DNA of 64,000 bases, from positions 1 to 64,000 of the IMG/VR virus record IMGVR_UViG_3300001598_000039; one strand, given 5' to 3'. Of this stretch, positions 1 to 42,263 are shown piece by piece. This DNA comes from a virus (Duplodnaviria; Heunggongvirae; Uroviricota; Caudoviricetes). The notes below the pieces were generated by a model. It saw only the letters and a list, made by a program, of their open reading frames with translations. It was not told where the DNA came from and ran no database searches. Position 1 is the stretch's first letter. Each line of letters starts with the position of its first letter. A program made the translations under genes and the position numbers.

Positions 1-1
1 T

Positions 2-35
2 ATTATAACAAAAGGCCGCTGCTCTGTTAACTTAG
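2..35 (-). promoter_or_regulatory. Class I early promoter copy reading leftward out of the window
   Basis: RC reads CTAAGTTAACAG-N-TTTTGTTATAAT; same box as 26 other copies. Confidence 0.55.
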
Positions 36-220
36 AGCGGGCAGCCTTTCTTGAAGAGCGGGCATGCCTTGCAGTCATCGTAGAGGAGGCATCCCTTCTT
101 GGCCAAAAGCTCAAGCTCAGCCTTCGACTCATCGTAGCTGATGACTTCGTTGTACTCAGCCTTGCGGTACTCTTGGTTCCGCTTGACCTTGGCGTCGTCG
201 ATAGGGAGGGGATCTAGCAT
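32..220 (-). CDS. Small early protein (62 aa) with C-terminal CxxC...C cluster
   Basis: Track ORF; class I promoter and AAAGGAA RBS upstream. Confidence 0.6.
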   Translation of the reverse strand: MLDPLPIDDAKVKRNQEYRKAEYNEVISYDESKAELELLAKKGCLLYDDCKACPLFKKGCPL

Positions 221-251
221 GGCACCGTTCCTTTCTTTAGGTTACGGCGCT

Positions 252-286
252 ATTATAACAAAAGCCGCTAGCGCTGTTAACTTAAG
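252..286 (-). promoter_or_regulatory. Class I early promoter
   Basis: RC CTTAAGTTAACAGCGCTAGCGGCTTTTGTTATAAT upstream of ATG at 220 with AAAGGAA RBS. Confidence 0.7.
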
Positions 287-287
287 A

Positions 288-680
288 TCAGCGCCATTCG
301 TAGTGGCCAGGCTGCCAAGTCCTGATGATGACACCATTGACCAAAGTGTCAACATAACAGCCAGGAACCCAGACTTGGACAGGCGCCCTTACGACGCCCG
401 GAGCAGCAATGACTGGCGCTGGAGCAGGCGCAGGAGATGCAACGACAACAGTCTGTGGCTGTACAGCTTGGCCGACAATGGCGCCAACTGTCGCGCCCGC
501 AAGAAGTCCAAGGCCAAATCCTGCATGGACCTCATGATGCGGAGGGCGATGCGGCGCTGGATGCCAAGCATGTGGAGCTGGCCGAGGCGGAGGGCAATTG
601 CGCGGTCCAGGACCATGGCCAGGGTTAGCGGATGCAAGAGCTGCGCAAAGCAGCGAGACAGCAAATATGAGGCGTTTCAT
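288..680 (-). CDS. Secreted Pro/His-rich protein (~130 aa)
   Basis: Start moved to internal ATG MKRLIFAVSLLCAALASA (signal peptide, AXA site) placed 6 nt after TATAAT; track ORF 288..752. Confidence 0.55.
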   Translation of the reverse strand: MKRLIFAVSLLCAALASANPGHGPGPRNCPPPRPAPHAWHPAPHRPPHHEVHAGFGLGLLAGATVGAIVGQAVQPQTVVVASPAPAPAPVIAAPGVVRAPVQVWVPGCYVDTLVNGVIIRTWQPGHYEWR

Positions 681-686
681 GGGAGG

Positions 687-720
687 ATTATAACAAAGTC
701 TTGGATGCTTGTTAACGTAG
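687..720 (-). promoter_or_regulatory. Class I early promoter (variant box), leaderless spacing to ATG 680
   Basis: RC ...GTTAACAAGCATCCAAGACTTTGTTATAAT then CCTCCC then ATG. Confidence 0.6.
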
Positions 721-951
721 CGTCGTCGCGACCTTATGGAACTTCCAGTCACCTAGTGACTCCTCAGAGTTATAGAAGCCCATCCACTTGTCGACGTCCG
801 CCGCGACGAACTTCCTGGCGTCTTCAATGTCTTCGACGACCTTCAAGCCGTCCTTGCCGATGTAGCCGGTCTTCGTGTAATGCTCAGGGTCATCCTTGCC
901 CGGACAGCCAAAGAGGACATATCTTTTCTGGTCAGAGGTCGCCATAGCCAT
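712..951 (-). CDS. Hypothetical early protein (79 aa)
   Basis: GAGGAG RBS 9 nt before ATG; co-transcribed behind the small basic ORF. Confidence 0.55.
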   Translation of the reverse strand: MAMATSDQKRYVLFGCPGKDDPEHYTKTGYIGKDGLKVVEDIEDARKFVAADVDKWMGFYNSEESLGDWKFHKVATTLR

Positions 952-956
952 TATCC

Positions 957-1105
957 TACTCCTCTAGACTGCGCTTGAGGTCGAGCTTGAGGCGTTGGCG
1001 AGCTGAAGCCTTGTCCTTCTTGGTCTTGAAGACTTTGGACTTCATGTCCTTCGGCGCAATGAACCGAGGGAGCTTAGGTGCCTGCTTTCTTTTGAGCGTC
1101 TTCAT
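957..1105 (-). CDS. Small basic Lys/Arg-rich peptide (~49 aa)
   Basis: ATG directly after the class I TATAAT; not in the >=60-aa track; coordinates approximate. Confidence 0.35.
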
Positions 1106-1111
1106 GGCCAT

Positions 1112-1145
1112 ATTATAACAAAGCGGTTGCGCTCTGTTAACTTAG
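1112..1145 (-). promoter_or_regulatory. Class I early promoter
   Basis: RC CCTAAGTTAACAGAGCGCAACCGCTTTGTTATAAT immediately followed by ATG. Confidence 0.65.
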
Positions 1146-1246
1146 GACTCGGACGTCTCTTTGTCCTTGAAGGCTTCGAGGATTGGGCACTTGAGGCTGC
1201 ACGCTTTGTCGATGAACTGGCATTCGCCGTTAGTCACCTTGCACAT
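1142..1246 (-). CDS. 34-aa Cys-rich peptide (C-x7-C-x8-C-x3-C)
   Basis: Read by eye; preceded by a GTGGTAAATAG late-like motif; stop codon overlaps the next promoter box. Confidence 0.3.
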   Translation of the reverse strand: MCKVTNGECQFIDKACSLKCPILEAFKDKETSES

Positions 1247-1322
1247 AGGCTTGGTGCATGCCGTCAGATAGATCTAGAACTTGCACTTGTCCATAACAAG
1301 GCTATTTACCACTTCAGAGCGG

Positions 1323-1447
1323 TCACCAGCCAAGCTTGTCGAGGATCCAGCCTGTGATTGACTTGCTGCCAGTCAAGAAGAGCATGACATCAATGAAGGC
1401 CAGCACTCCAAGGACTTTAGGGGCTACTGTTGCGACTGACGCGAGCA
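1323..1447 (-). CDS. ~41-aa hydrophobic peptide
   Basis: AGAAAGGAAC RBS then ATG downstream of the class I promoter at 1486-1520; coordinates approximate. Confidence 0.3.
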
Positions 1448-1485
1448 TGCTCGTTCCAGCTTGTTCCTTTCTTACGTTCCGGCCA

Positions 1486-1520
1486 TATTATAACAAAAGC
1501 CCTAGGTCTTGTTAACCTAA
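1486..1520 (-). promoter_or_regulatory. Class I early promoter
   Basis: RC CCTTAGGTTAACAAGACCTAGGGCTTTTGTTATAAT. Confidence 0.65.
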
Positions 1521-1551
1521 GGCTTTCGGCTTGCTGCGAGGACCATTGCCA

Positions 1552-2238
1552 TCAGAGAGTGCGCTCGTTGGTCTCGGTCGAGATGAGCTTCGCCGACCAA
1601 GATCCCCAGACCGCGGCGTCATGCGTACGGACAGCTTCGCCGGTCTGGTAAGTCTGGATGCCACACGCATTGGCCTCGATCGTGTGGTCCCAACTTTCGT
1701 TGTCAGGACACTGGCAGTCGACGATGCCCGTGAAGTAGCCAGAAAGGCTCTTGACCTTGTTGCATGAAGGGACGCCATCACCGCAGAAGTCGCAGCCTGT
1801 GCCCTTGATGTACTTGAGTGCGCCGTTGCCAGCAAACATGAGGGAGATGAACTTCTCATGAGCCGACTGCGTCGTACCGACGATGTTGGTGTCAAAGCCA
1901 GTCCAACAGACAGTAGGGACGCTCCGGTATGCCTTGGAGGTCGTCTTGCCCATCATGTTGAGGATGCCTTCATCGATCCAAATGCGGTGCTCGACCTTCG
2001 TCTTGCTGTTCTTGACGTCGATGTAGACCTTTGAGGGGCCCGCTTCGGCGTCAGCGTATTCGACGACCATGGTGCCTTTGAGCGACTGGCTTGCGTAAGT
2101 ACGGACGCCTTTGCTCACAAACGGCATCTTCGCCGACATGGTGAAGCTGTAGGTGTCAACGACTTCAGGCTCAGGCTGGTAGCCGTAGGCCATAATGCTT
2201 GCAGCGCACAGAAGCGCCGCCATCAGGAGTTTCTTCAT
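1552..2238 (-). CDS. Secreted protein (228 aa), N-terminal signal peptide MKKLLMAALLCAASIMA
   Basis: Track ORF; class I plus class II promoters upstream; AGGAAG RBS. Confidence 0.7.
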   Translation of the reverse strand: MKKLLMAALLCAASIMAYGYQPEPEVVDTYSFTMSAKMPFVSKGVRTYASQSLKGTMVVEYADAEAGPSKVYIDVKNSKTKVEHRIWIDEGILNMMGKTTSKAYRSVPTVCWTGFDTNIVGTTQSAHEKFISLMFAGNGALKYIKGTGCDFCGDGVPSCNKVKSLSGYFTGIVDCQCPDNESWDHTIEANACGIQTYQTGEAVRTHDAAVWGSWSAKLISTETNERTL

Positions 2239-2305
2239 TTGTTTGGTTCTTCCTTGTTAGTTTGTCTGTTGCGGTCCTCGCAACATCTTCATATTGTACG
2301 CTACC

Positions 2306-2339
2306 ATTATAACAAAGCTTAGGCCATCTGTTAACTTAG
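2306..2339 (-). promoter_or_regulatory. Class I early promoter (followed by a class II TACAAT box at ~2292-2300)
   Basis: RC CCTAAGTTAACAGATGGCCTAAGCTTTGTTATAAT then GGTAGCGTACAATATG. Confidence 0.65.
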
Positions 2340-2350
2340 GCCATCTTGCT

Positions 2351-2390
2351 AAAAAACAGCTGGCCAGAGGTTTTGCCCTCTGGCCAGCTG
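2351..2390 (-). terminator. Rho-independent terminator (14-bp perfect stem CAGCTGGCCAGAGG / CCTCTGGCCAGCTG followed by T6 on the minus strand)
   Basis: Read directly from the sequence. Confidence 0.7.
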
Positions 2391-2451
2391 CCGATTGATC
2401 AGCGTATCGTTGATAGATTGAGCAAGCGTACGCCGTTCAGTCGTTATGTCC

Positions 2452-2958
2452 TTATTGTACCTTGCCCTTGGACAAGTTCTTGATGAGCTCAACGTCATCC
2501 AAGGCCTTCACCAGGTCTTCGTAGGCCAGTTCGTCAGCCTTGATGGTGCCGTCAGTGATCTTCTCCCGGACTAGGCCATCCAGCATGTCTTTGGATCGCT
2601 TGATGAAGTAGCTTGTGGCAGCGACATACCGGCGGAAGTCCTCAGTTGCGGCGATCTCATCCTTCTCCTCTTTGCTGACCTGTGCTGAAGGCGAGTCCTT
2701 GACCTCGATTCGGTAGGCCTTGTCCTTAGGCTTGAAGGTGACCATGTAGTCCATGTCTGAAGCGGCATTGTGGAAGTGCGCTTTGGATAGGCCATCCTTC
2801 TTGAAGTCCTTCAGCTCTTCGCCGAATGCCTTGTCGAACTTAGGCCCGAACTTCTGCTCCTTGGCCATCCGGTACCATAGGCCTTCTGAGTCGATTCCAA
2901 CACACCAGACTCCGATGAGCTCAATGGTGTCTTCCGTCTTGTTGTCCTTGTCGTTCAT
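2452..2958 (-). CDS. Hypothetical protein (168 aa)
   Basis: Track ORF; late-like GCAGTAAATAAGG motif 12 nt upstream of ATG. Confidence 0.6.
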   Translation of the reverse strand: MNDKDNKTEDTIELIGVWCVGIDSEGLWYRMAKEQKFGPKFDKAFGEELKDFKKDGLSKAHFHNAASDMDYMVTFKPKDKAYRIEVKDSPSAQVSKEEKDEIAATEDFRRYVAATSYFIKRSKDMLDGLVREKITDGTIKADELAYEDLVKALDDVELIKNLSKGKVQ

Positions 2959-2980
2959 AGCTAGACCTTATTTACTGCTG

Positions 2981-3009
2981 GCCGGCCGAGTGGGTCTGCT
3001 CGGCCGGCC
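2981..3009 (-). terminator. GC-rich hairpin (GGCCGGCCGAG...CTCGGCCGGCC) just downstream of gene 3019..3333
   Basis: 11-bp stem; no clear T-run. Confidence 0.45.
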
Positions 3010-3018
3010 GGTTGGATC

Positions 3019-3333
3019 TCAGTCGAAGGTGTACTTCTGGCCGGCGAAGCTGAGCTCTTTCACCGTACCGAGGTTCAAGGTCCGGTACTGGTGGCCAATG
3101 ACGCCGGGCTTCACCAGCTCTTCGACGACCATCATGTCGCGCTTCCGGAGGGTCTCATGGCGCTTAGCCGTCGCTTCCGGTTGGCTGAAGGTCCGGCTGT
3201 CCTCAAGCTTCTTGGAGCGGTGGATCTGCATTGTCCGCAGCTCGCCAGTCGTCTTCTTGATGAACTTGACCGTGAGGATCTTGTTGGCGATGTTCTCCTC
3301 GATGAGGTTCCTGACGAAGTCGATCTTGTCCAT
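3019..3333 (-). CDS. Hypothetical early protein (104 aa)
   Basis: Class I promoter and AAAGGAAG RBS upstream. Confidence 0.65.
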   Translation of the reverse strand: MDKIDFVRNLIEENIANKILTVKFIKKTTGELRTMQIHRSKKLEDSRTFSQPEATAKRHETLRKRDMMVVEELVKPGVIGHQYRTLNLGTVKELSFAGQKYTFD

Positions 3334-3367
3334 TGCGTTCTTCCTTTCTTTTAGGTTTGGTGAGTCT

Positions 3368-3402
3368 ATTATAACAAACTTCCTGCGTTCTGTTAACTTA
3401 AG
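3368..3402 (-). promoter_or_regulatory. Class I early promoter
   Basis: RC GGCTTAAGTTAACAGAACGCAGGAAGTTTGTTATAAT; leader with AAAGGAAG before ATG 3333. Confidence 0.7.
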
Positions 3403-3509
3403 CCTTATGGCTACGGAGGCTCGTCCGCTTCGTTGAGTTCGCCGAGGTCGTCGTACATGTAGCTGTTCATCTGCTGTTTCCTTTCTGCCGTTTGCCGGCT
3501 GACGGTGCT

Positions 3510-3544
3510 ATTATAACAAAAGCTGGCTTGCCTGTTAACTTAAG
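3510..3544 (-). promoter_or_regulatory. Class I early promoter, leftward member of divergent pair
   Basis: RC GCTTAAGTTAACAGGCAAGCCAGCTTTTGTTATAAT; 32 bp from rightward copy at 3577. Confidence 0.65.
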
Positions 3545-3576
3545 CTTTCTGCTTCCGCTGGAGCTTTGTGAGATGC

Positions 3577-3611
3577 CTTAAGTTAACGCGGCCCTGAGGC
3601 TTTGTTATAAT
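3577..3611 (+). promoter_or_regulatory. Class I early promoter, rightward member of divergent pair
   Basis: CTTAAGTTAACGCGGCCCTGAGGCTTTGTTATAAT; RBS AAAGGAAG; ATG 3651. Confidence 0.75.
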
Positions 3612-3650
3612 GTAGCCATCGGAAGCACCAATAAAGAAAGGAAGTTCAAG

Positions 3651-3935
3651 ATGCAGTTCGGACGCAAGATCAGCGACACCCTGGAAGAGCACAAGTATGG
3701 CTTCTCGTTCATGCGGGATGACACCGGCGGGCAGCGTGTTAAGGCCTTCACTGGCCGCGGAGTGAGTGCCGAGGCTGCCCTGGAGGATGCCAAGGCCAAA
3801 GCCCGCAGCTATCGGTCGAGCTACGCCGAGGAGCTGAACCGCAAGGCCCGCGACAAGGCTGCCGCTCGTGGTGACCGGTACCGTCCCTCGGAGATTCGAG
3901 TGAGCATCGTCGGCCGCAGCGAATGGCCCATGTGA
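3651..3935 (+). CDS. Hypothetical early protein (94 aa)
   Basis: Class I promoter, AAAGGAAG RBS, hairpin terminator at 3961-3996. Confidence 0.7.
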   Translation: MQFGRKISDTLEEHKYGFSFMRDDTGGQRVKAFTGRGVSAEAALEDAKAKARSYRSSYAEELNRKARDKAAARGDRYRPSEIRVSIVGRSEWPM

Positions 3936-3960
3936 CCTCGCTCGAGCTGAGTGCCTGAGT

Positions 3961-3996
3961 GGCCCGGCGGCATGCCAAGCGCAGCTGCCGGGCTTT
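3961..3996 (+). terminator. Hairpin terminator (GGCCCGGCGGC...GCTGCCGGGCTTTGC)
   Basis: Stem followed by TTTG. Confidence 0.5.
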
Positions 3997-4011
3997 GCAT
4001 CTTGGCCCAAC

Positions 4012-4046
4012 GCTTAAGTTAACAAGCTCCAGGAGCTTTGTTATAA
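4012..4046 (+). promoter_or_regulatory. Class I early promoter
   Basis: CTTAAGTTAACAAGCTCCAGGAGCTTTGTTATAAT. Confidence 0.75.
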
Positions 4047-4098
4047 TATAACCATCGGAAGCCAAACAGCAACCTAACTGAAAGAAAGGAAGTTCAAG

Positions 4099-4401
4099 AT
4101 GAGCAAGATCAGCAAAGCCCTCGCGGAAGAGTACGCCTCCCTCAAGAAGGACACGGACGCCAAGCTGGCCCGGATGAAGGAGATCAGCGCCCTGTTCCTC
4201 CAGGAGCACCAGGAGACTCAGGCTGAGCACCTCGACTTCGACGGCGTCCTCAAGTCCGCGTGGTTCGAGAAGACCACCAAGAAGCTGGACCTCGCCGCGG
4301 TTGAGGCCAAGTTCGGCATCAAGATCACCGAGGACTGCTACAAGTTCACCACGGCTAAGAGCCACAGCATGACTGTGGACCGGAAGCTCCTTCTTGGCTA
4401 A
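4099..4401 (+). CDS. Hypothetical early protein (100 aa)
   Basis: Class I promoter, AAAGGAAG RBS. Confidence 0.7.
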   Translation: MSKISKALAEEYASLKKDTDAKLARMKEISALFLQEHQETQAEHLDFDGVLKSAWFEKTTKKLDLAAVEAKFGIKITEDCYKFTTAKSHSMTVDRKLLLG

Positions 4402-4422
4402 GCGCCAGGCGAGCTCCGCGGT

Positions 4423-4458
4423 TGGCTGGAGGGCAACGGCTCTCCAGCCCGTTTTTGC
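4423..4458 (+). terminator. Rho-independent terminator (GGCTGGAG...CTCCAGCC followed by CGTTTTTGC)
   Basis: 8-bp stem plus T-run. Confidence 0.65.
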
Positions 4459-4475
4459 TTTCTGCGGCGCCAAGC

Positions 4476-4510
4476 CTTAAGTTAACAAGGCCGCGAGGCT
4501 TTGTTATAAT
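4476..4510 (+). promoter_or_regulatory. Class I early promoter
   Basis: CTTAAGTTAACAAGGCCGCGAGGCTTTGTTATAAT. Confidence 0.75.
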
Positions 4511-4542
4511 AGCCATGTCCAGAGGACAAAAGGAGAAAGCCA

Positions 4543-4701
4543 ATGAGGACCTACACTGTTGCCATGATTGACACCCGCAGGAACTTCCGCCGCCTCATCG
4601 CGGTCCAGGGCTACAGCTGCATCGACGCCGGCGCCGCTGCCAGGAAGGCGCTCGGCCCGGAGGGCTACGACCGTATCGAGTCCATCCGCTGCATCGGGTG
4701 A
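4543..4701 (+). CDS. 52-aa peptide
   Basis: AAAGGAGAAAG RBS downstream of the class I promoter; not in track. Confidence 0.45.
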   Translation: MRTYTVAMIDTRRNFRRLIAVQGYSCIDAGAAARKALGPEGYDRIESIRCIG

Positions 4702-4704
4702 AAG

Positions 4705-4739
4705 CTTAAGTTTACAAGCGCCAGCAGGTTTGTTATAAT
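4705..4739 (+). promoter_or_regulatory. Class I early promoter (TTTAC variant)
   Basis: CTTAAGTTTACAAGCGCCAGCAGGTTTGTTATAAT. Confidence 0.7.
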
Positions 4740-4762
4740 AGCCTCAAAAGGAGATCACCGAC

Positions 4763-4903
4763 ATGCCTGACAAAGAAGAGTTCCACTTCGTCCATTGCTC
4801 CCGCTGCGGCGCCAGCCTCTGCAAGGAGACCGACACCTACCGCTTCGGCGAGGATGGCGAGCCCGTCTGCTACGACTGTGCCGAAGAGCCTGACCGAGGC
4901 TAA
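4763..4903 (+). CDS. 46-aa zinc-ribbon-like peptide (CxxC...CxxC)
   Basis: AAAGGAGA RBS downstream of the class I promoter. Confidence 0.45.
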   Translation: MPDKEEFHFVHCSRCGASLCKETDTYRFGEDGEPVCYDCAEEPDRG

Positions 4904-4934
4904 AGTTAACAGAGGGCCATGGCTTTGTTATAAT
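4900..4934 (+). promoter_or_regulatory. Class I early promoter (CTAAAG variant)
   Basis: CTAAAGTTAACAGAGGGCCATGGCTTTGTTATAAT. Confidence 0.65.
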
Positions 4935-4964
4935 GGCCTCGTAACGCAAGAAAGGACCAACCAG

Positions 4965-5099
4965 ATGAAAGCGCTCATCAAGACCTGCACCGTCATCGGC
5001 ATCATCGTCTTCATCAACTTCCTCATGGCTCTTGGCTCGCCTGTCTTCCAGCTCACGGCGGCGATCATCCTCTTCTGCCTGCTCTACCGGGCAGTCTAA
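4965..5099 (+). CDS. 44-aa membrane peptide (single TM helix)
   Basis: AAGAAAGGA RBS; hydrophobic sequence. Confidence 0.45.
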   Translation: MKALIKTCTVIGIIVFINFLMALGSPVFQLTAAIILFCLLYRAV

Positions 5100-5129
5100 G
5101 TTAACAAGCGGCCTAGACTTTGTTATAAT
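5096..5129 (+). promoter_or_regulatory. Class I early promoter; leaderless spacing (ATG 5136 is 6 nt after TATAAT)
   Basis: CTAAGTTAACAAGCGGCCTAGACTTTGTTATAAT AGCCTC ATG. Confidence 0.7.
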
Positions 5130-5135
5130 AGCCTC

Positions 5136-5834: not shown

Positions 5835-5860
5835 CAGAGCGAGCGGACTTTGTTATAATA
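5826..5860 (+). promoter_or_regulatory. Class I early promoter
   Basis: CTTAAGTTAACAGAGCGAGCGGACTTTGTTATAAT; the upstream gene's stop codon lies inside the box. Confidence 0.75.
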
Positions 5861-5891
5861 GCCTTGTCAAACGACAGACAGGAACTAGAAG

Positions 5892-6128
5892 ATGCCTAAG
5901 AGCAAGACGCCGGCGGAAGCCAAAGCCAAGAAGAAGGAAGCAGCCATGGAGAAGAGCCTGACGGCCCTCAAGGAAGCCAAGAGCATGCTTGGCACTCTCC
6001 TTGACGAATGTGAGCGCTTCAACGATGAGGTCGCTGAGCCCGACTGGTACCTGCGAGAGGACTACGAGAAGGCGGTCAAGTGCATCGACTCAGCCCTGCG
6101 GGCGATCAGCCTTGTCCAGAAGGCCTAA
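5892..6128 (+). CDS. Hypothetical early protein (78 aa)
   Basis: Class I promoter, GGAAC RBS. Confidence 0.65.
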   Translation: MPKSKTPAEAKAKKKEAAMEKSLTALKEAKSMLGTLLDECERFNDEVAEPDWYLREDYEKAVKCIDSALRAISLVQKA

Positions 6129-6158
6129 GTTAACAAGAGGCCGGAAGTTTGTTATAAT
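6125..6158 (+). promoter_or_regulatory. Class I early promoter
   Basis: CTAAGTTAACAAGAGGCCGGAAGTTTGTTATAAT. Confidence 0.7.
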
Positions 6159-6212
6159 AGTCACGTCAGCCGGAATACGGCAAAAACCAACAAAAACAAG
6201 GAGAAAGCAGAG

Positions 6213-6407
6213 ATGAAGTTCTACAACATGGGCAAGAAGGCGCTCAAGCATGATGTCAAGTGCGGCACGAAGGTCGTGATCCCGGCCGGCACGAAGAACG
6301 TCAAGATCGCCTTCCGCCAGAGCCACCTGACCCGCATCGATGACGAGACCGGCAAGGTTGTGAACATGAACGTGTACATGGTTGGCAGCAAGGTGTTCCA
6401 CGCCTAA
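6213..6407 (+). CDS. Hypothetical early protein (64 aa)
   Basis: AAGGAGAAAG RBS; terminator downstream. Confidence 0.65.
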   Translation: MKFYNMGKKALKHDVKCGTKVVIPAGTKNVKIAFRQSHLTRIDDETGKVVNMNVYMVGSKVFHA

Positions 6408-6453
6408 GCCAAATACGCTTTCAAGCGACGAGGACGGCAACCCCTCGACTCAC

Positions 6454-6495
6454 GGCCCGCTAGCCAGACCATCCAGCTAGCGGGCCATTTATGTC
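6454..6495 (+). terminator. Rho-independent terminator (GGCCCGCTAGC...GCTAGCGGGCC then ATTTATGTCTC), followed by a (CT)6 microsatellite
   Basis: 11-bp perfect stem. Confidence 0.65.
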
Positions 6496-6518
6496 TCTCT
6501 CTCTCTCCTTCCAGGCGC

Positions 6519-6553
6519 CTTAAGTTAACACGGCCGCGCTCTTTTGTTATAAT
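6519..6553 (+). promoter_or_regulatory. Class I early promoter
   Basis: CTTAAGTTAACACGGCCGCGCTCTTTTGTTATAAT. Confidence 0.7.
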
Positions 6554-6600
6554 AGCACTGTCCGCCGGAAACGGCAAACCAAGCAAAAAGGAGAAAGCCA

Positions 6601-6705
6601 ATGCCTAGCAACAAGACCGGAACGATTGCTGACTACTACCGTGACATGACCCCTGAGCAGGCCAAGCGCGAGCTTGAGGCCCTGTATGCCGGGAAAGCTG
6701 TATAA
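6601..6705 (+). CDS. 34-aa peptide
   Basis: AAAGGAGAAAG RBS after the class I promoter. Confidence 0.4.
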   Translation: MPSNKTGTIADYYRDMTPEQAKRELEALYAGKAV

Positions 6706-6764
6706 TAGACCATGACGCCGGTGATGGCGTTACGCTGACAAAAAGCCACCAGTTCGCAGCGGAT

Positions 6765-6808
6765 AGCCAGTCGGAGTACACGAACCACTCCGGCTGGCTT
6801 CTTTTTTG
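6765..6808 (+). terminator. Rho-independent terminator (AGCCAGTCGGAGT...ACTCCGGCTGGCT then T7)
   Basis: 13-bp stem plus T-run. Confidence 0.7.
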
Positions 6809-6822
6809 CTTCCAGCCCAAAG

Positions 6823-6857
6823 CTTAAGTTTACAGGAGCCAGCGGCTTTGTTATAAT
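6823..6857 (+). promoter_or_regulatory. Class I early promoter (TTTAC variant), leaderless to ATG 6864; duplicate of the 8292 copy
   Basis: CTTAAGTTTACAGGAGCCAGCGGCTTTGTTATAAT GGCCTC ATG. Confidence 0.7.
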
Positions 6858-6863
6858 GGCCTC

Positions 6864-7157
6864 ATGAGAGCGAACGTCAAAGAAGCCAACAAGCACCTCC
6901 TCAAGGCCATGAAGCCTTGCTACTTCGACCACATCCCGGTCGCCGAGATCCAGGCTGTCCTGAAGGAGCACCAGATCATGCTGGTGAATGAGGACGGAAC
7001 ACCATTTGAAGCCATCTTCTGCGGCCGCTCCGGACATACCCTGATTGACCTAGCGATCTGCGGTGTGTGCGGCGCCGTAGTTGACAACCACAAGCTCTTC
7101 CTCAGCTGGTACACCATGCCGAGCGGGCGCTATGAGATCACCACTTACCTGAGCTGA
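6864..7157 (+). CDS. Hypothetical early protein (97 aa), Cys-rich C-terminus
   Basis: Leaderless. Confidence 0.65.
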   Translation: MRANVKEANKHLLKAMKPCYFDHIPVAEIQAVLKEHQIMLVNEDGTPFEAIFCGRSGHTLIDLAICGVCGAVVDNHKLFLSWYTMPSGRYEITTYLS

Positions 7158-7161
7158 GCGG

Positions 7162-7196
7162 CTTAAGTTAACGCCGTCACCAGACTTTGTTATAAT
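7162..7196 (+). promoter_or_regulatory. Class I early promoter
   Basis: CTTAAGTTAACGCCGTCACCAGACTTTGTTATAAT. Confidence 0.7.
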
Positions 7197-7231
7197 GCTG
7201 CTGTCAACCGAAACTGAAAGGAAACATTAAA

Positions 7232-7426
7232 ATGCTTCGCAAGTACACGAACGAACTGCTAGAGAGAGTTGAAGCTGGAGAGCTGACCGCGGACGAAGTC
7301 CTGCGCTCGCTTGTCGATTTCCTGCCTGAGGACACCGTCGAGGAGTTCTGCATCAACGGCGACTACGCCGAGCTCTTCGAGGATGAGGAGGACGAGGACA
7401 TCGAAGAGGCCGACGACGAGGAATAG
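7232..7426 (+). CDS. Highly acidic 64-aa protein (C-terminal EDEEDEDIEEADDEE); DNA-mimic candidate
   Basis: Track ORF; own promoter; TAG stop. Confidence 0.6.
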   Translation: MLRKYTNELLERVEAGELTADEVLRSLVDFLPEDTVEEFCINGDYAELFEDEEDEDIEEADDEE

Positions 7427-7432
7427 CCCAAG

Positions 7433-7467
7433 CTTAAGTTAACGTCAGCTCGGCGACTTGATATAAT
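7433..7467 (+). promoter_or_regulatory. Class I early promoter (-10 region TTGATATAAT)
   Basis: CTTAAGTTAACGTCAGCTCGGCGACTTGATATAAT. Confidence 0.65.
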
Positions 7468-7502
7468 CATCTCATCGGACGAACCAAACAAAAGGCCAAC
7501 CA

Positions 7503-7700
7503 ATGAACCTCAGCAAGACCGACAAGTTCAACTTCATCTGCTACGGCTTCTGCGCCCTGACCGCACTTGCAGCGCTCATCTGCCATCTGGCGAACGGCGG
7601 AAGCATCACCAGCACCGGGCATCTCAGCGCGGCATGCGGCTGGGTCGTCGCGATTGCTGAGTCGCTCCATCGCATTGCCGACCGGAATGATGAGCCTTAA
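7503..7700 (+). CDS. 65-aa putative membrane protein
   Basis: Track ORF; hydrophobic core. Confidence 0.55.
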   Translation: MNLSKTDKFNFICYGFCALTALAALICHLANGGSITSTGHLSAACGWVVAIAESLHRIADRNDEP

Positions 7701-7730
7701 GTTAACGCCAACGCGCCAGTTTGTTATAAT
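7696..7730 (+). promoter_or_regulatory. Class I early promoter
   Basis: CTTAAGTTAACGCCAACGCGCCAGTTTGTTATAAT. Confidence 0.7.
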
Positions 7731-7802
7731 AGCAACGTAACGGAACACAAGAGCAACACTGAAACAACAAATCACAAACCCAACCGAAAGGAACGAAAGA
7801 CA

Positions 7803-8222
7803 ATGAACGAGACGAACACGAACGAGACCACCCAGAAGCAGACGAACAATGAGGTCTGGAAGCAGATCCGGGCCCTTGGCAAGGAGAAGAAGGCGAAGCG
7901 CGCCGAGGTCGTCAAGGCCGTCGACAAGCTCTGGGCCGACTATGCCAAGTGGCGCGACGAGGAGTGCGCCACGAAGATCGCGGAGCTCCGCAAGTTCATC
8001 ACAGACCGCCATGACGAGCGCGTCGCCAAGCGGGCCAACCGCGAGGCTGACAAGGCCAAGAAGGCCGAGGAGAAGGAGGCCAAGGCCAAGGAGCGCGCCG
8101 AGAAGAAGGCGAAGCGCGAGGCTGAGAAGGCTGCCAAGGCTGCCGAGAAGGCCGCGGCCAAGGCTAAGAAGGCGGAGGAGAAGGCTGCTGCCAAGGCCGC
8201 TAAGGCTGCCGAGGCCAAGTAA
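7803..8222 (+). CDS. Histone H1-like Lys/Ala/Glu-rich protein (139 aa) with AKKAEEKAAAKA repeats
   Basis: Composition resembles H1/Hc1/AlgP-type KA repeats; terminator downstream. Confidence 0.65.
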   Translation: MNETNTNETTQKQTNNEVWKQIRALGKEKKAKRAEVVKAVDKLWADYAKWRDEECATKIAELRKFITDRHDERVAKRANREADKAKKAEEKEAKAKERAEKKAKREAEKAAKAAEKAAAKAKKAEEKAAAKAAKAAEAK

Positions 8223-8250
8223 GACGCCAACCTGACCACATGTTTCCTAT

Positions 8251-8279
8251 GGCCGGTCCGCAAGGACCGGCTTTCTTTG
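8251..8279 (+). terminator. Terminator hairpin (CCGGTCC...GGACCGG then CTTTCTTTG)
   Basis: Stem plus T-rich tail. Confidence 0.55.
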
Positions 8280-8291
8280 CCTCTGCCAAAG

Positions 8292-8326
8292 CTTAAGTTT
8301 ACAGGAGCCAGCGGCTTTGTTATAAT
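8292..8326 (+). promoter_or_regulatory. Class I early promoter (identical over ~45 bp to the 6823 copy)
   Basis: CCAAAGCTTAAGTTTACAGGAGCCAGCGGCTTTGTTATAAT. Confidence 0.7.
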
Positions 8327-8350
8327 AGCCACAGAAACGGAGATCCCAAC

Positions 8351-8632
8351 ATGCCAGACAAGGTCTACTTCATCTCGAACGACAGCGGCTTCCTCATGCG
8401 GAAGGGAACGCCCAAAGGCAAGCCCATGTTCAGGCAATGCTCGAACCCGGAGAAGGCATGGTGCACAGCCAACCGTGACGAAGCCGAGACCAAGGCCGCT
8501 GAGCTGCGTCGCAAAGGCTACATCAACAAGTGGCGCGACGGAGACGGCATCTGCGAGGTCAACAACAGCGACCATATCTTCGACGACTGCCTCGCCCTTA
8601 ACCAGCCCGCCAATGAGCCGAGCCACTCATGA
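8351..8632 (+). CDS. Hypothetical early protein (93 aa)
   Basis: Track ORF with GGAG RBS. Confidence 0.65.
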   Translation: MPDKVYFISNDSGFLMRKGTPKGKPMFRQCSNPEKAWCTANRDEAETKAAELRRKGYINKWRDGDGICEVNNSDHIFDDCLALNQPANEPSHS

Positions 8633-8722
8633 GCGCCAAGCCAATGGAGCTAACATCCGCCGGCCAAGTGAGGGCCTCATGAGCTCCAAGGCAAGTCTAG
8701 ATGAAAGCCAAAGCTGAGCGGC

Positions 8723-8757
8723 CTTAAGTTAACGCAAGCCAAGACCTTTGTTATAAT
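8723..8757 (+). promoter_or_regulatory. Class I early promoter
   Basis: CTTAAGTTAACGCAAGCCAAGACCTTTGTTATAAT. Confidence 0.7.
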
Positions 8758-8790
8758 AGCGCTGTCACAAACCTCCAGAAGGAGAACGAA

Positions 8791-9000
8791 ATGCCAAACA
8801 CCAAAGCCAAGCCCGCAGACCTCAAGCGCCAGCAAGCCAACAAAGCCATTGTCGCCAAGCTCGCCGAAATGGTTGAAGCCCATCCTGAGCTCCGCTTCCA
8901 ACAGATCCTCCAGGACATGGACATCATCAAGCCTAGCGAGGACCGCTTCTATGAGGAGCCGGACGTCACGCTCTCCCGAATGCTCGACTTCATCGCTTAG
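8791..9000 (+). CDS. Hypothetical early protein (69 aa)
   Basis: AAGGAGAAC RBS. Confidence 0.65.
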   Translation: MPNTKAKPADLKRQQANKAIVAKLAEMVEAHPELRFQQILQDMDIIKPSEDRFYEEPDVTLSRMLDFIA

Positions 9001-9013
9001 CCTGGACAGCAGA

Positions 9014-9048
9014 CTTAAGTTAACGAAGCCAAGAAGCTTTGTTATAAT
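9014..9048 (+). promoter_or_regulatory. Class I early promoter
   Basis: CTTAAGTTAACGAAGCCAAGAAGCTTTGTTATAAT. Confidence 0.7.
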
Positions 9049-9086
9049 CTTGCCAGAAACGGCAACCTAACTGAAAGGATGAAACA

Positions 9087-9203
9087 ATGCTGAAGCTCAT
9101 AGACCGAATCTTCTCCGGAATCCAAGACCTGGCGCAGTCCTGTCCCGAGTCCGCTAAGGCAGTCGACTTCATGTTCTCCTCAACATCTCACAACTTTGCC
9201 TGA
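9087..9203 (+). CDS. 38-aa peptide
   Basis: AAAGGATGAAAC RBS; not in track. Confidence 0.4.
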   Translation: MLKLIDRIFSGIQDLAQSCPESAKAVDFMFSSTSHNFA

Positions 9204-9207
9204 ACCA

Positions 9208-9435
9208 ATGAAAGCCATCATCCTCATAGCCATTCTAGCCGTCGCCGGCTTCCTGCTGTCGAACCGCTACAACCATGCTGACCTCCATCAAGACCATGAG
9301 GCGCTAGCAAGCCATGTCTTCGCGCTCGAGGCTATCGCCGAAGACACGAATGCCAGAGTCCGCGACAACCAAGCCAAACTCACCAAACTCCTGCAGATCG
9401 CCGAATCCTGCCGGAACCAAGACCTTGACCGCTAA
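9208..9435 (+). CDS. 75-aa N-terminally membrane-anchored protein
   Basis: Internal ATG of track ORF 9196..9435; MKAIILIAILAVAGFLL. Confidence 0.5.
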   Translation: MKAIILIAILAVAGFLLSNRYNHADLHQDHEALASHVFALEAIAEDTNARVRDNQAKLTKLLQIAESCRNQDLDR

Positions 9436-9465
9436 GCCTAGACTTCCAATTTCTCCTTGCCCGTG

Positions 9466-9668
9466 CATCCACGCCTGCGTGGCGCGCGCCTGCGCGCGTT
9501 CTAGGAATATCTATCTAGGTTTAAGATATAATAGGAGAAGATAGGATAGGATCTTATTATTTTTAGAAGTCTAGGTTTAGAATCTAGATTTTTTAAGAAT
9601 CTAGGTCTTAAGAATCTAAACTTAAAGTCTTTAGAAGTTTAACGCATGCGAGCACGCCTGCGCGCGTA
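9466..9668. repeat. AT-rich (~25% GC) 143-bp island carrying TCTAGG / AGAATCTAG iterons, bounded by GC-rich direct repeats CACGCCTGCGCGCG
   Basis: Seen directly; no ORF. Confidence 0.6.
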
Positions 9669-9671
9669 AGG

Positions 9672-9706
9672 CCTAAGTTAACAGAAGCCGGACAGTTTGT
9701 TATAAT
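9672..9706 (+). promoter_or_regulatory. Class I early promoter
   Basis: CCTAAGTTAACAGAAGCCGGACAGTTTGTTATAAT. Confidence 0.7.
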
Positions 9707-9751
9707 CCTACTGTCGCAAACCTCTGGAACTTAGTGAAAGGACTAAAGCCA

Positions 9752-10189
9752 ATGTCGGAGAACCACGCCCATTATTTGCCCGCCAATCTCCCGCCTAGCA
9801 TCAAGGCCAAGCTCGATGCCGGCGAGCGCCTTTCTGGACCACTCTTCGTCGGCCAAGGCTTCACCCACTCCGTTGGATCTGACTCCTATGGCGGCTACGT
9901 CGTCTCCATCGCTACCCTCCCGAACCGCAAGCCTATCGTCGGCCTTGTCTCCGCCGACAGCGTCATGCACGGCGACTGGACCGAAGGCACGATGGACAAC
10001 AGCGTTGACCTCGCCCAAGCCAAGCCCGAACAATGGATCACCACCTACGGCAAGAACAAAATCACAGGCGCGCCCAAGTGGTGGTTCTGCAGCGCAACCG
10101 GCGACCGCAAGAATCCTGTTGGCTACCGCATCGGCAAGTGCGGCTACTCCTGGAACGGCGCCTACTCCTACCGCGACCCCTCTTTCTGA
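9752..10189 (+). CDS. Hypothetical early protein (145 aa)
   Basis: ATG with AAAGGA RBS; the track start at 9734 is GTG. Confidence 0.6.
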   Translation: MSENHAHYLPANLPPSIKAKLDAGERLSGPLFVGQGFTHSVGSDSYGGYVVSIATLPNRKPIVGLVSADSVMHGDWTEGTMDNSVDLAQAKPEQWITTYGKNKITGAPKWWFCSATGDRKNPVGYRIGKCGYSWNGAYSYRDPSF

Positions 10190-10201
10190 GGCCAACCGCC
10201 G

Positions 10202-10230
10202 GGCTTCCGAGGCCCTCACCTTCGGAAGCC
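10202..10230 (+). terminator. Hairpin (GGCTTCCGA...TCGGAAGCC)
   Basis: 9-bp stem. Confidence 0.45.
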
Positions 10231-10361
10231 AATAATTCTATCATCCCACCCGCTCCTAATCCGCTCGGCTTCTCCAGCCAACCTTCCGTGCAACCCAATC
10301 CTAAGGCCGGCGAATGCAAAGCCAAACCTTGCGCGCCTGCGTAGCGCGCCCGAGCGCGAAG

Positions 10362-10396
10362 CCTAAGTTAACGAGACCCCATGCCTTTGTTATAAT
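10362..10396 (+). promoter_or_regulatory. Class I early promoter
   Basis: CCTAAGTTAACGAGACCCCATGCCTTTGTTATAAT. Confidence 0.7.
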
Positions 10397-10441
10397 AGCA
10401 CTGTCATCAAGCTCCAGAACTTAATGAAAGGACCAAACCAA

Positions 10442-10558
10442 ATGGACAACCCCTACCGCACCAACTATGCCCTCCTCTTCCTCGCCGGCCTTGCAACCGC
10501 GGTCCTCGTAAACCTGACTGCCTTCCTCATCGGCATGTCCGTCATCCTCGCCCGCTAA
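10442..10558 (+). CDS. 38-aa membrane peptide
   Basis: AAAGGACCAAAC RBS; hydrophobic. Confidence 0.4.
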   Translation: MDNPYRTNYALLFLAGLATAVLVNLTAFLIGMSVILAR

Positions 10559-10577
10559 CCAACAAGGAATCTAGACC

Positions 10578-10829
10578 ATGACCACTACCCCTACTCCCAT
10601 CGCCCTTCCCGTAGGCCTTCTTGCCCTCGAATCCACCTCGTCCATAGGCCGCACCTGCATCACCACTCCAGGCCGAGCGCTGACTGGCTGGGACATCTTC
10701 TTCCGCCTCGCCGACGCCTCTGGCATGCAGCCCAACGACTTCGGCAACGCCTACGATCCCCTTGTCTGCTGCGACCATGTCATGCTCGACACGCGCCTGC
10801 TAGCGCCTACGACACGCCCGAGCGCATAA
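10578..10829 (+). CDS. Hypothetical protein (83 aa)
   Basis: AAGGAA RBS. Confidence 0.5.
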   Translation: MTTTPTPIALPVGLLALESTSSIGRTCITTPGRALTGWDIFFRLADASGMQPNDFGNAYDPLVCCDHVMLDTRLLAPTTRPSA

Positions 10830-10902
10830 CGACGCGCGACAGGCCTTCCTCGGCTGCCAGCCAAGCCATCCTTCAACCTAGCCAGGCAGCTAGGCGACAG
10901 GC

Positions 10903-10937
10903 GCTAAGTTAACAAAAAGCACCAGGCATGTTATAAT
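10903..10937 (+). promoter_or_regulatory. Class I early promoter (degenerate -10 region CATGTTATAAT), leaderless spacing to ATG 10944
   Basis: GCTAAGTTAACAAAAAGCACCAGGCATGTTATAAT. Confidence 0.55.
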
Positions 10938-10943
10938 ACAAGC

Positions 10944-11186
10944 ATGCAGGACAGCCACATCCAAACCTATGAGGCCACTAGCCGGACCCTAGACCCTACC
11001 CGGCTATACCAAGCCTTGCGAGCCAGGCAGCTAGCCAACGATCCAGAGGCCAAGCAGTCAAGCTCGCCGGACAGCCTAGCGCCAGACCCTAGCCTGCTGC
11101 CCGAGGCCAACCTGTCAGCCAGCCAACCGCGGGTCCTAGGGCCTGGCCGACAGCCCGGCGACCGGTCCGAGGGCTTGTTAACTTAA
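10944..11186 (+). CDS. Doubtful ORF (80 aa, low complexity, CTAG-rich); may be a non-coding early transcript
   Basis: Repeats AGCCAGGCAGCTAG; ends at the 30-bp palindrome. Confidence 0.25.
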   Translation: MQDSHIQTYEATSRTLDPTRLYQALRARQLANDPEAKQSSSPDSLAPDPSLLPEANLSASQPRVLGPGRQPGDRSEGLLT

Positions 11187-11203
11187 GGCCTTAAGTTAAC
11201 AAG
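11174..11203. repeat. 30-bp perfect palindrome CTTGTTAACTTAAGG|CCTTAAGTTAACAAG, i.e. two facing class I -35 boxes; a third box without a -10 sits at ~11230-11247
   Basis: Seen directly. Confidence 0.8.
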
Positions 11204-11299
11204 GCATGTGCCAGGTGAGCCGAAAGCCTAAGTTAACAAGGCCATCCGGGCTGTGCCCGGCTAGCCAGGTGCCCGGGTGACGCGGGTTATAGGGCTGGC

Positions 11300-11520
11300 G
11301 CCAGGTGTCCTGGACTGGTCGTGGTGTCCAGGAGGTGTCCAGGGGGTGTCCAGTGGTTAGAGTCTGGCGTAGTTGGATGGTCGCGTATGGCGTATGGTGT
11401 ATGGTGTGTCTCGCGCTTAGCGCTTAGAGAGAGAGTCTGATGTGCAAGTGTATGGCGCCTAGTGTCTAGCATCTGGAGTATGGCTTAGCGCTTAGCGGCA
11501 TCAATGGCTTTCTACATAGT
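11300..11520. repeat. Short tandem repeat cluster: GGTGTCC(A/T)G x4, (C/T)GTATGG x3, CGCTTAG x2 (twice), (AG)5
   Basis: Seen directly inside a ~930-bp non-coding GT-skewed region 11190-12125. Confidence 0.7.
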
Positions 11521-41184: not shown

Positions 41185-41185
41185 G

Positions 41186-42249: not shown

Positions 42250-42263
42250 GGCCATATTGTACA

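Follow-up and report, generated by a model that had tools for sequence, protein, structure and literature searches.

The early promoters of bacteriophage T4 carry the word GTTTAC from -36 to -31, in which the G at -36 is strongly conserved and -33 is T instead of the sigma-70 G, combine a T/G-rich extended -10 with a consensus -10, and stand by the dozen before novel open reading frames (ORFs) (PMC1524935). They have been described as 'uber' promoters, with extra conserved positions beyond the sigma-70 elements, that work with the unmodified host polymerase (PMC2988021), and a connection has been drawn between their position -33 and the ADP-ribosylated alpha subunit, that is, polymerase modified by injected Alt (PMC1524935). 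In phages RB49 and phi1, some 50 strong early promoters with stem-loops (promoter-early stem-loops, PeSLs) flank orphan ORFs, mediate insertions and deletions between close relatives, and form mini-circles (PMC2839356). The host-takeover module of phage SPO1 lies in the terminal redundancy, spans about 12 kb and is transcribed in both directions; its two to three dozen early genes are small, have strong ribosome sites and strong promoters of the housekeeping-sigma type, and encode acidic DNA mimics and other small effectors (PMC6873191). Here we describe a dense array of one repeated promoter-like element in the first 11 kb of a 64,000-nucleotide stretch ('the window') of the Caudoviricetes record IMGVR_UViG_3300001598_000039 (positions 1-64,000).

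We put at roughly 80% the probability that this array is the immediate-early region of an uncultivated large phage, in which at least 28 strong host-sigma promoters drive small genes and the promoter repeats double as points of cassette recombination. The core of this reading, a bidirectional array of one strong promoter driving small orphan genes, is well supported by the sequence. We observe the geometry of the elements, purifying selection on both their boxes and the ORFs, and one cassette insertion/deletion with its breakpoints in two promoter copies.

Layout and anatomy of the promoter array

A search of the window for the pattern CTTAAGTTAAC-N13-TTTGTTATAAT, allowing up to three mismatches, identified 26 sites in 2-10396 and none in 100 dinucleotide-preserving shuffles, and a generic sigma-70 scan revealed a 27th, more divergent copy at 10903-10937 (CGCTAAGTTAAC...ATGTTATAAT). 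The minus strand carries eight copies (2-36 to 3510-3544) and the plus strand nineteen (3577-3611 to 10903-10937), in agreement with a preliminary description of this DNA, made from its letters alone, which had reported 27 or more copies, eight facing left and nineteen facing right from a 32-bp hub. The repeat interval of 200-700 bp given there has to be widened, as neighbouring copies are 142-1062 bp apart. The AT skew reverses sign at the hub, as expected because the coding strands diverge there.

The array extends to the left of the window start: in the related contig L097 (positions 1-445) it continues with a 123-aa gene and a further leftward promoter, and at least 28 copies therefore exist. 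To the right, a search of 11.2-64 kb for either half-motif found none present as a promoter, leaving the remaining 53 kb without any copy. On the plus strand of 11251-64000, TATAAT occurs at one site, GTTAAC at two and TTAACA at one, against a crude mononucleotide expectation of about 9-11, each word thus being 5-10 fold under expectation outside the early region; this depletion fits an avoidance of stray promoters. A k-mer search of 11.2-64 kb for a second (middle or late) promoter motif returned only coding repeats. Furthermore, scans with the promoter pattern of IMG/VR, of JGI metagenome contigs and of GTDB genomes yielded single matches only and no second array; these lie mostly in unrelated, often low-GC DNA and include T4-type GTTTAC promoters.

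Promoter copies and hub (coordinates, strand, remarks):
L097 9-43, leftward: 28th copy, ATTATAACAAA-N13-GTTAACTTAAG
2-36, minus: TCTAAGTTAAC-N13-TTTGTTATAAT; its gene (123 aa in L097) lies left of the window
252-286, minus: exact consensus
687-721, minus: weakest upstream box (GCTACGTTAAC); ATG 7 nt past the -10
1112-1146, minus: ATG 7 nt past the -10
1487-1521, minus: from pattern search and sigma-70 scan
2306-2340, minus: from pattern search and sigma-70 scan
3368-3402, minus: exact consensus
3510-3544, minus: left arm of the divergent hub
3545-3576: hub, 32 bp separating the -35 boxes of the two innermost, divergent copies
3577-3611, plus: right arm of the hub
4013-4047, plus: from pattern search and sigma-70 scan
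4476-4510, plus: from pattern search and sigma-70 scan
4705-4739, plus: GTTTAC subtype (the T4 -35 word)
4900-4934, plus: box gives the TAA stop of gene 4763-4903
5095-5129, plus: gives the stop of 4965-5099; ATG 7 nt past the -10 (232-aa gene, predicted leaderless)
5825-5859, plus: the 232-aa gene ends in its GT[TAA]C
6124-6158, plus: gives the stop of 5892-6128
6519-6553, plus: from pattern search and sigma-70 scan
6823-6857, plus: GTTTAC subtype; 36 nt including the spacer identical to the copy at 8292; ATG 7 nt past the -10
7162-7196, plus: from pattern search and sigma-70 scan
7433-7467, plus: TGATATAAT variant
7696-7730, plus: gives the stop of 7503-7700
8292-8326, plus: GTTTAC subtype, paralogue of 6823
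8723-8757, plus: left breakpoint of a strain-specific 949-bp block
9014-9048, plus: within the variable 949-bp block
9672-9706, plus: right breakpoint of the variable 949-bp block
10362-10396, plus: 114 nt of promoter and 5' untranslated region (5'UTR) shared with the 9672 unit at 75% identity
10903-10937, plus: last and most divergent copy; faces conserved non-coding DNA

Aligned on the -10, the copies give the consensus aaGGCTTAAGTTAAC(a)-N12-cTTTGTTATAAT-agc.cY|R-T. All 27 have TATAAT as their -10, an extended -10 TG at -15/-14 and a spacer of exactly 17 bp, and their -35 hexamers (TTAACA, TTTACA or TTAACG) match TTGACA at four or five of six positions. G stands at -36 in every copy (27/27), position -33 is A in 24 copies and T in three, and AC follows at -32/-31. 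All 26 measurable copies have a pyrimidine six bases past the -10 and a purine directly after it, the usual -1/+1 context, and the 13 central spacer bases are free of constraint and 66% G+C. No A-rich UP-like tract occupies -40 to -44, where the sequence reads (a)GGCTT, and both half-words of the CTTAAG/GTTAAC box are palindromic. Each copy is thus, by its geometry, a near-consensus putative promoter of the housekeeping-sigma type.

In addition, every copy points at an ORF, which starts either 20-75 nt downstream with a Shine-Dalgarno (SD) sequence or exactly 7 nt after the -10; the ATG falls exactly on the predicted +1 in five copies, and most ORFs have a strong AAAGGA(G) SD 8-12 nt before their ATG. 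Three units share a 5'UTR hairpin, GCCGG(A/C)AA(A/T)CGGC, directly after the predicted start (3470-3510 on the minus strand, 6159-6212 and 6554-6600). The recurring 5'UTR families comprise the GCCGGAAACGGC hairpin, CATCGGAAG, and the 114-nt stretch common to the 9672 and 10362 units. The shared hairpin and CATCGGAAG may be transcript-stabilising 5' structures that were copied together with the promoter.

Strain variation, small genes and cassette exchange

Look-ups of exact protein matches yielded contigs of the same phage in four other sequencing runs, and one further run, SRR1221442, gave contigs identical to the window. L003, L004, L095, L096 and L097 are about 96% identical to the window (L097 96.2%), and for L098 the identity is 93.6%. 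L097 spans 18 promoter copies; in it, the 22 box positions are variable at only 1 of 385 sites, against 21 of 232 (9.0%) in the N13 spacer, 3.6% in other intergenic DNA, and 0.84%, 0.54% and 6.9% at codon positions 1, 2 and 3; CTTAAG taken alone varies at 1/108 sites. The pooled comparison likewise gave 2/429 variable sites in the boxes vs 13/251 in the spacer (Fisher p = 9e-5), distributed by sub-element as 2/120 for CTTAAG, 0/100 for TTAAC, 0/95 for TTTGT and 0/114 for TATAAT. Both boxes, including the 'extra' CTTAAG, are by this measure under strong purifying selection, and the spacer drifts at about the silent-site rate.

The array contains around 30 genes of 19-232 aa, with one to three small, mostly orphan genes per copy. 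Synonymous changes far exceed non-synonymous ones gene by gene, even in ORFs of 34-52 aa, and as the changes fall almost only at third codon positions, the micro-ORFs are therefore real genes. To the ORF range of 34-232 aa reported earlier, an ORF of 19 codons is to be added. The genes are listed below, with synonymous/non-synonymous changes (s/n) from the between-strain comparison where available; entries marked 'from translation' are described from the translated ORF.

32-220, minus: 62-aa gene; stop in the next box; s/n 7/3
288-680, minus: 130-aa Pro/His-rich protein; signal peptide starts at the candidate leaderless ATG; s/n 24/7
712-951, minus: 79-aa gene; stop in the next box; s/n 11/6
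956-1105, minus: 49-aa Lys-rich ORF from the predicted +1 onwards; leaderless candidate, variable sites too scarce for a judgement
1142-1246, minus: 34-aa Cys-rich (CxxC) peptide; stop in the next box; s/n 6/2
1323-1448, minus: 41-aa hydrophobic peptide; s/n 7/2
1552-2238, minus: 228-aa Cys-rich protein with N-terminal signal-like peptide; s/n 30/1
2452-2958, minus: 168-aa gene, second in the unit of promoter 3368; s/n 14/1
3019-3333, minus: 104-aa gene; phrog_2267 (unknown function); s/n 7/0
3411-3470, minus: 19-codon acidic micro-ORF with SD; no variable sites; putative coding
3651-3935, plus: 94-aa gene; from translation
4099-4401, plus: 100-aa gene; from translation
4543-4701, plus: 52-aa gene; s/n 7/0
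4763-4903, plus: 46-aa CxxC...CxxC (zinc-ribbon-like) peptide; s/n 8/2
4965-5099, plus: 44-aa hydrophobic peptide; s/n 4/0
5136-5834, plus: 232-aa gene, predicted leaderless; C-terminal part matches phrog_3754; s/n 31/3
5892-6128, plus: 78-aa gene; s/n 13/4
6213-6407, plus: 64-aa gene; from translation
6601-6705, plus: 34-aa gene; from translation
6864-7157, plus: 97-aa leaderless candidate; no divergent strain covers the gene
7232-7426, plus: 64-aa strongly acidic protein; from translation
7503-7700, plus: 65-aa hydrophobic protein; from translation
7803-8222, plus: 139-aa Lys/Ala/Glu-rich low-complexity protein; from translation
8351-8632, plus: 93-aa gene; s/n 4/0
8791-9000, 9087-9203 and 9208-9435, plus: 69-aa, 38-aa and 75-aa genes in the 949-bp variable block
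9752-10189, plus: 145-aa gene; s/n 14/6
10442-10558, plus: 38-aa hydrophobic peptide; from translation
10578-10829, plus: 83-aa gene, second in the unit of promoter 10362; from translation

At least two of these genes, encoding the 232-aa and the 130-aa protein, begin at the predicted +1 and are, on this prediction, leaderless; between strains, they differ by 1/0/38 and 3/3/31 changes at codon positions 1/2/3, respectively. In-frame insertions of 12 bp (at 749, in gene 712-951) and 9 bp (at 5928, in gene 5892-6128) separate the window from L097, and length variation is therefore tolerated in these two small proteins. The Pro/His-rich secreted, zinc-ribbon, membrane, histone-H1-like and acidic products named in the preliminary description are visible in the translations, where these terms serve as sequence descriptions only. 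Only two families, both of unknown function, emerged when the ten largest early proteins were scanned against Pfam and PHROG; PDB sequence searches with the two largest proteins found no match, and the 232-aa protein has no homologue among 5.8 billion proteins. A tblastn search with the 104-aa early protein detected one weak match, in Salicola phage SCTP-2.

We also folded every gap from a gene to the next promoter (targeted fold), and the hairpins found are as follows:
2356-2391, minus: 15-bp-stem hairpin, -32.9 kcal/mol, with A-run/T-run flanks; could act bidirectionally
2980-3009, minus: GC hairpin, -24.9 kcal/mol, without T tail, between two genes of one unit
3961-3994, plus: terminator-like hairpin, -26.8 kcal/mol, T-rich tail; targeted fold
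4418-4452, plus: intrinsic-terminator-like hairpin followed by TTTTGCTTT; terminator scan and targeted fold
6454-6486, plus: strong hairpin, -23.4 kcal/mol, weak T tail; targeted fold
6761-6802, plus: hairpin, -24.4 kcal/mol, followed by TTTTTGCTT; targeted fold
8251-8272, plus: hairpin, -18.6 kcal/mol, followed by TTCTTTGCC; terminator scan and targeted fold

A further tail-less hairpin starts at 10202. Strong hairpins with T-rich tails thus follow only some six or seven of about 30 genes, and a generic terminator scan showed no enrichment (11 vs 12.7 in shuffles), so that a terminator of its own for each gene is rejected. The stop codon of eight genes is a TAA supplied by the box of the following promoter (CT[TAA]G or GT[TAA]C), from which nested read-through transcripts are to be expected, and four further genes end within 6 nt of the next box. 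The earlier picture of monocistronic units with their own terminators therefore applies to only about one third of the units. Each gene has its own predicted promoter, yet many units must, to judge by this layout, be read through from upstream.

One strain difference reveals how such units may be exchanged. A 949-bp block on the plus strand (8758-9706), containing three genes and promoter 9014, is absent from strain ERR11637157 (L098). At the L098 junction (L098 424-479), the -35 box, spacer and -10 of promoter 8723 are followed within 1-3 nt by the 5'UTR of promoter 9672, a junction that has the form of a footprint of homologous exchange between two promoter units. The copies at 6823, 8292 and 4705 form a GTTTAC sub-family; for two of them, 4705 and 8292, the downstream genes begin with the same four codons (MPDK). 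Neither an integrase nor a recombinase turned up in the window. The preliminary description had set remnants of a mobile element against functional promoters; with the junction of the 949-bp block lying inside two copies, the repeats appear to be both at once.

The stretch after the last promoter and the rest of the window

The last promoter faces a conserved region with the following features:
10944-11320, plus: conserved, highly structured non-coding stretch
11175-11202: perfect palindrome TTGTTAACTTAAGGCCTTAAGTTAACAA, containing the boxes at 11177-11187 and 11190-11200
11177-11187 (minus), 11190-11200 (plus) and 11227-11237 (plus): three -35-type boxes without a -10, from a word search

These three boxes, which bear out the earlier report of boxes lacking a -10 in 11174-11247, lie near the centre of an imperfect inverted repeat of about 260 nt. 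As RNA, 10944-11320 folds with z = -5.2. In L098, 10891-11317 is far better conserved than its surroundings, with all three boxes unchanged; beyond it, at about 11318-11400, lies a repeat zone that is hypervariable and rich in indels (GGTGTCCAG, GTATGG motifs). The 80-codon ORF of the last promoter (10944-11186), the fifth ORF with its ATG on the predicted +1 and so a leaderless candidate by position, does not evolve like coding sequence and is rejected as such: it has diverged by 1.2% in a strain 6.4% divergent overall, with 2/1/0 changes at codon positions 1/2/3 and no codon periodicity. The stretch may be a boundary or insulator, a terminator, or an origin-like or packaging-related element, fed by the last promoter; alternatively, it could hold relics of promoter recombination.

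Outside the array, the window is phage-like in content and encodes the following:
16333-17562, minus: WGR and PARP-catalytic-domain protein (ADP-ribosyltransferase), 5 kb from the array
26912-28093, minus: full-length type I DnaJ (J, zinc-finger and C-terminal domains), from domain content
30487-32187, minus: TROVE/DUF2828-DUF7788 (Ro-like) protein; no Y-RNA-like or other Rfam match in the window
37250-44850 and 57300-61487, minus: two sugar-modification gene clusters, from gene content
46752-56612, plus: four consecutive large ORFs (1096, 349, 1087 and 672 aa) without a Pfam family

Homologues of the WGR-PARP protein (50-55% identity) lie directly upstream of a T4-type portal gene (PF07230, Portal_T4) in contigs of 74-277 kb and 33-43% GC (L091-L093). 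This adjacency is a hint that a group of large phages may have an ADP-ribosyltransferase associated with the virion; as close relatives, these contigs are rejected, given their GC content and T4-type portals. The best named DnaJ homologues (41-43% identity) belong mostly to Kiritimatiellae metagenome-assembled genomes (MAGs), a weak hint to the host lineage. A tblastn search with the TROVE-like protein matched 710 unrelated phages and was uninformative. The sugar clusters, with an RmlD-like reductase, a dTDP-4-dehydrorhamnose epimerase, rhamnosyl and other glycosyltransferases and DUF4422, suggest surface or DNA glycosylation functions. Two of the four large ORFs have weak matches, to PHROG families of unknown function only, the two largest have no PDB sequence match, and the large ORFs hold internal nucleotide repeats such as CCTCAGCGGAA, present in four copies at 51.1-51.6 kb. 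The window also encodes an NAD-dependent ligase, a MoxR-type ATPase with a DUF2201 partner and a SleB-type hydrolase, and has no tRNAs and no Rfam match anywhere. With 50,697 phage records as the target, neither megablast of 1-12000 nor tblastn with the 1087-aa protein gave a match, and a related-locus search with the same protein found nothing, so that no close relative came to light.

Competing explanations and comparison with known systems

In the reading that we favour, the host housekeeping-sigma RNA polymerase would read all copies without any phage protein, from promoters consisting of G at -36, TT(A/T)AC(A/G) at -35 to -30, a free 17-bp spacer, TTTG-T-TATAAT and a purine start 7 nt after the -10. 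Upon injection, the host polymerase would be drawn to these copies, and genes for about 30 small proteins would be expressed in both directions from the central hub. The products, among them secreted, membrane, Cys-rich, basic and acidic proteins, are presumed to be host-takeover or anti-defence effectors. The promoter/5'UTR units would act as homology patches through which recombination inserts, deletes and duplicates cassettes, and many boxes would have a second role as the TAA stop of the upstream gene. Actual transcription, its early timing, the use of the host polymerase and the protein functions are what we infer from this layout. Early timing and the host-takeover or anti-defence roles are suggested by analogy only, the takeover role resting on it because no product has a known function.

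Several observations weigh against this reading. The consensus G at -33 occurs in 0 of 27 otherwise optimal -35 boxes, and CTTAAG at -41 to -36, with the GG before it, is as constrained as the -10, beyond what plain sigma-70 needs. Moreover, the three boxes at 11177-11237 stand without a -10, and only one recombination event was seen. The -35 and -10 were scored against the general sigma-70 consensus, which may not be that of the host; in addition, only 64 kb of a larger genome is visible, and a phage sigma factor or polymerase may be encoded elsewhere. Finally, no array product has a functional match in the Pfam, PHROG and protein-collection searches, and the AlphaFold single-sequence model of the 232-aa protein is unusable (pLDDT 35).

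An explanation that we consider unlikely is that the CTTAAG/GTTAAC box is the operator of a dedicated factor, besides or instead of being a sigma -35 site. A virion-delivered or early-made factor would then either boost all copies, like the T4 Alt-modified alpha subunit, or shut them all off at the early-to-middle switch, and its binding to the palindromic orphan boxes at 11175-11237 would form a boundary. The near-invariance of CTTAAG (1/108 in L097, 2/120 pooled) beside a spacer varying at 9% and 5%, the -33 that is never G in 27 otherwise optimal promoters, the palindromic half-words and the identity of the three boxes lacking a -10 in a strain 93.6% identical overall are all in line with an operator, as are the link between the non-consensus -33 of T4 and the ADP-ribosylated alpha subunit (PMC1524935) and the WGR-PARP protein that this phage encodes 5 kb away, whose homologues adjoin a T4-type portal gene in other large contigs. 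However, the conserved bases are contiguous with the -35, in a zone already contacted by sigma region 4 and the alpha C-terminal domain, and unmodified host polymerase suffices for T4 early promoters, which share the G at -36 and the non-G at -33 (PMC2988021). Box constraint may also stem from stop-codon use in eight genes and from the role as recombination patch, and the orphan boxes sit inside a larger inverted repeat conserved as a whole. Among the ten largest early proteins, Pfam and PHROG named no DNA-binding candidate, PARP-type enzymes differ in class from Alt, and packaging of this one is conjectural. The preliminary description's proposal of a dedicated factor for CTTAAG is thus right about the extra conserved bases, but the T4 early register implies that a factor, while possible, is not required.

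The repeats might instead be primarily recombination or mobility sites, integron-like or PeSL-like, whose promoter look is secondary. The clean 949-bp cassette block bounded by two copies in one strain difference, the paralogous promoter-plus-5'UTR units and the similar behaviour of the RB49/phi1 PeSLs, which form mini-circles (PMC2839356), speak for such a role, but homology alone would not free the 13-bp spacer while freezing two boxes at sigma-70 spacing, fix a pyrimidine/purine at -1/+1, or orient every copy to an ORF with an SD or a +1 ATG, nor does the window hold an integrase or recombinase; as a primary explanation we consider it very unlikely. Since PeSLs are themselves functional promoters, mobility is better seen as a second role than as a true rival. 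Most improbable, in our view, is that the sites are promoters of a phage-encoded sigma factor or RNA polymerase, being middle or late or dependent on a packaged enzyme instead of host-dependent and early. Some 22 fixed positions over 35 bp represent an information content more typical of phage-polymerase promoters, and the visible 64 kb belong to a larger genome, but the bipartite arrangement of -35, 17 bp and TGnTATAAT is the signature of a housekeeping sigma. To our knowledge, the promoters of phage single-subunit and non-canonical multisubunit polymerases are single contiguous motifs. No structural, sigma-factor or RNA-polymerase gene is present in the window, and small orphan genes with strong ribosome sites match early modules (PMC6873191).

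A bolder combination of these ideas, which we regard as decidedly unlikely, is that the 11-bp CTTAAGTTAAC word is the common operator of a phage-delivered regulator or of phage-modified alpha (for instance through the WGR-PARP protein as an analogue of T4 Alt), which would switch at least 28 units on or off and, bound to the promoter-less boxes at 11175-11237, would insulate the edge of the array. Combined with recombination from promoter to promoter, such a regulator would turn the array into a self-contained, integrase-free platform of counter-defence cassettes, in a phage whose host phylum (possibly Kiritimatiellota) has no cultured phages. Under the favoured reading of host-sigma early promoters, the array is an unusually clean and regular natural example of a known phage early layout and reveals no new principle. 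The population data nonetheless mark functional promoter positions base by base, and the roughly 30 micro-proteins, mostly database orphans, are candidate host-takeover or anti-defence factors. The cassette insertion/deletion supports an idea whose documentation has so far come mainly from T4-type coliphages, namely that the modular shuffling of genes is driven by repeated early promoters. In addition, the strong, compact promoter, with its leaderless variants, could be a useful part, and the fixed A at -33 and CTTAAG at -41 to -36 offer a handle on polymerase-promoter contacts in the host.

When set in the same register as the T4 early promoters, the copies share G at -36, TT at -35/-34, a non-G at -33 and AC at -32/-31, with exact GTTTAC in three copies, together with a T/G-rich extended -10, a consensus -10 and an arrangement of dozens of copies before small novel ORFs; the extra conservation therefore has a precedent that involves no dedicated DNA-binding factor. 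By the same analogy, the copies here would be expected to out-compete host promoters. Unlike in T4, A is preferred at -33, the zone from -40 to -44 holds a fixed GGCTTAA in place of an A-rich UP element, the array is much more uniform and much more densely packed (one copy in about 400 bp), some transcripts are predicted to be leaderless, the genome has 54% G+C, and no T4 core gene is found in the 64 kb. In gene content, the SPO1 host-takeover module is the closest functional analogue, as a cluster of small genes with strong promoters and ribosome sites is found here as well; in SPO1, however, about a dozen promoters drive operons and there is not one per gene, and the ten largest products here show no sequence similarity to known phage families of the SPO1 module.

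Like phage morons and integron cassettes, the units are self-contained (promoter, gene and sometimes terminator) and are gained and lost in a tolerant region. Morons, however, have no conserved flanking repeats, whereas here the promoter itself is the repeat, and integrons use an integrase with attC sites and a single common promoter, with no integrase seen in this window. The closest described behaviour is that of the PeSL cassettes. A PeSL-type stem-loop in the spacer is rejected, because spacer palindromes are at chance level (4 of 27 copies vs 3.0 expected in shuffles) and strong hairpins precede only about seven copies, and the boxes here, unlike PeSLs, often provide the stop codon of the upstream gene. 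As with PeSLs, however, repeated strong sigma-70-like promoters lie directly upstream of orphan ORFs in a variable (hyperplastic) region, and relatives differ by cassette insertions and deletions, in the one event seen here, with breakpoints between the -10 and the start codon of two repeats.

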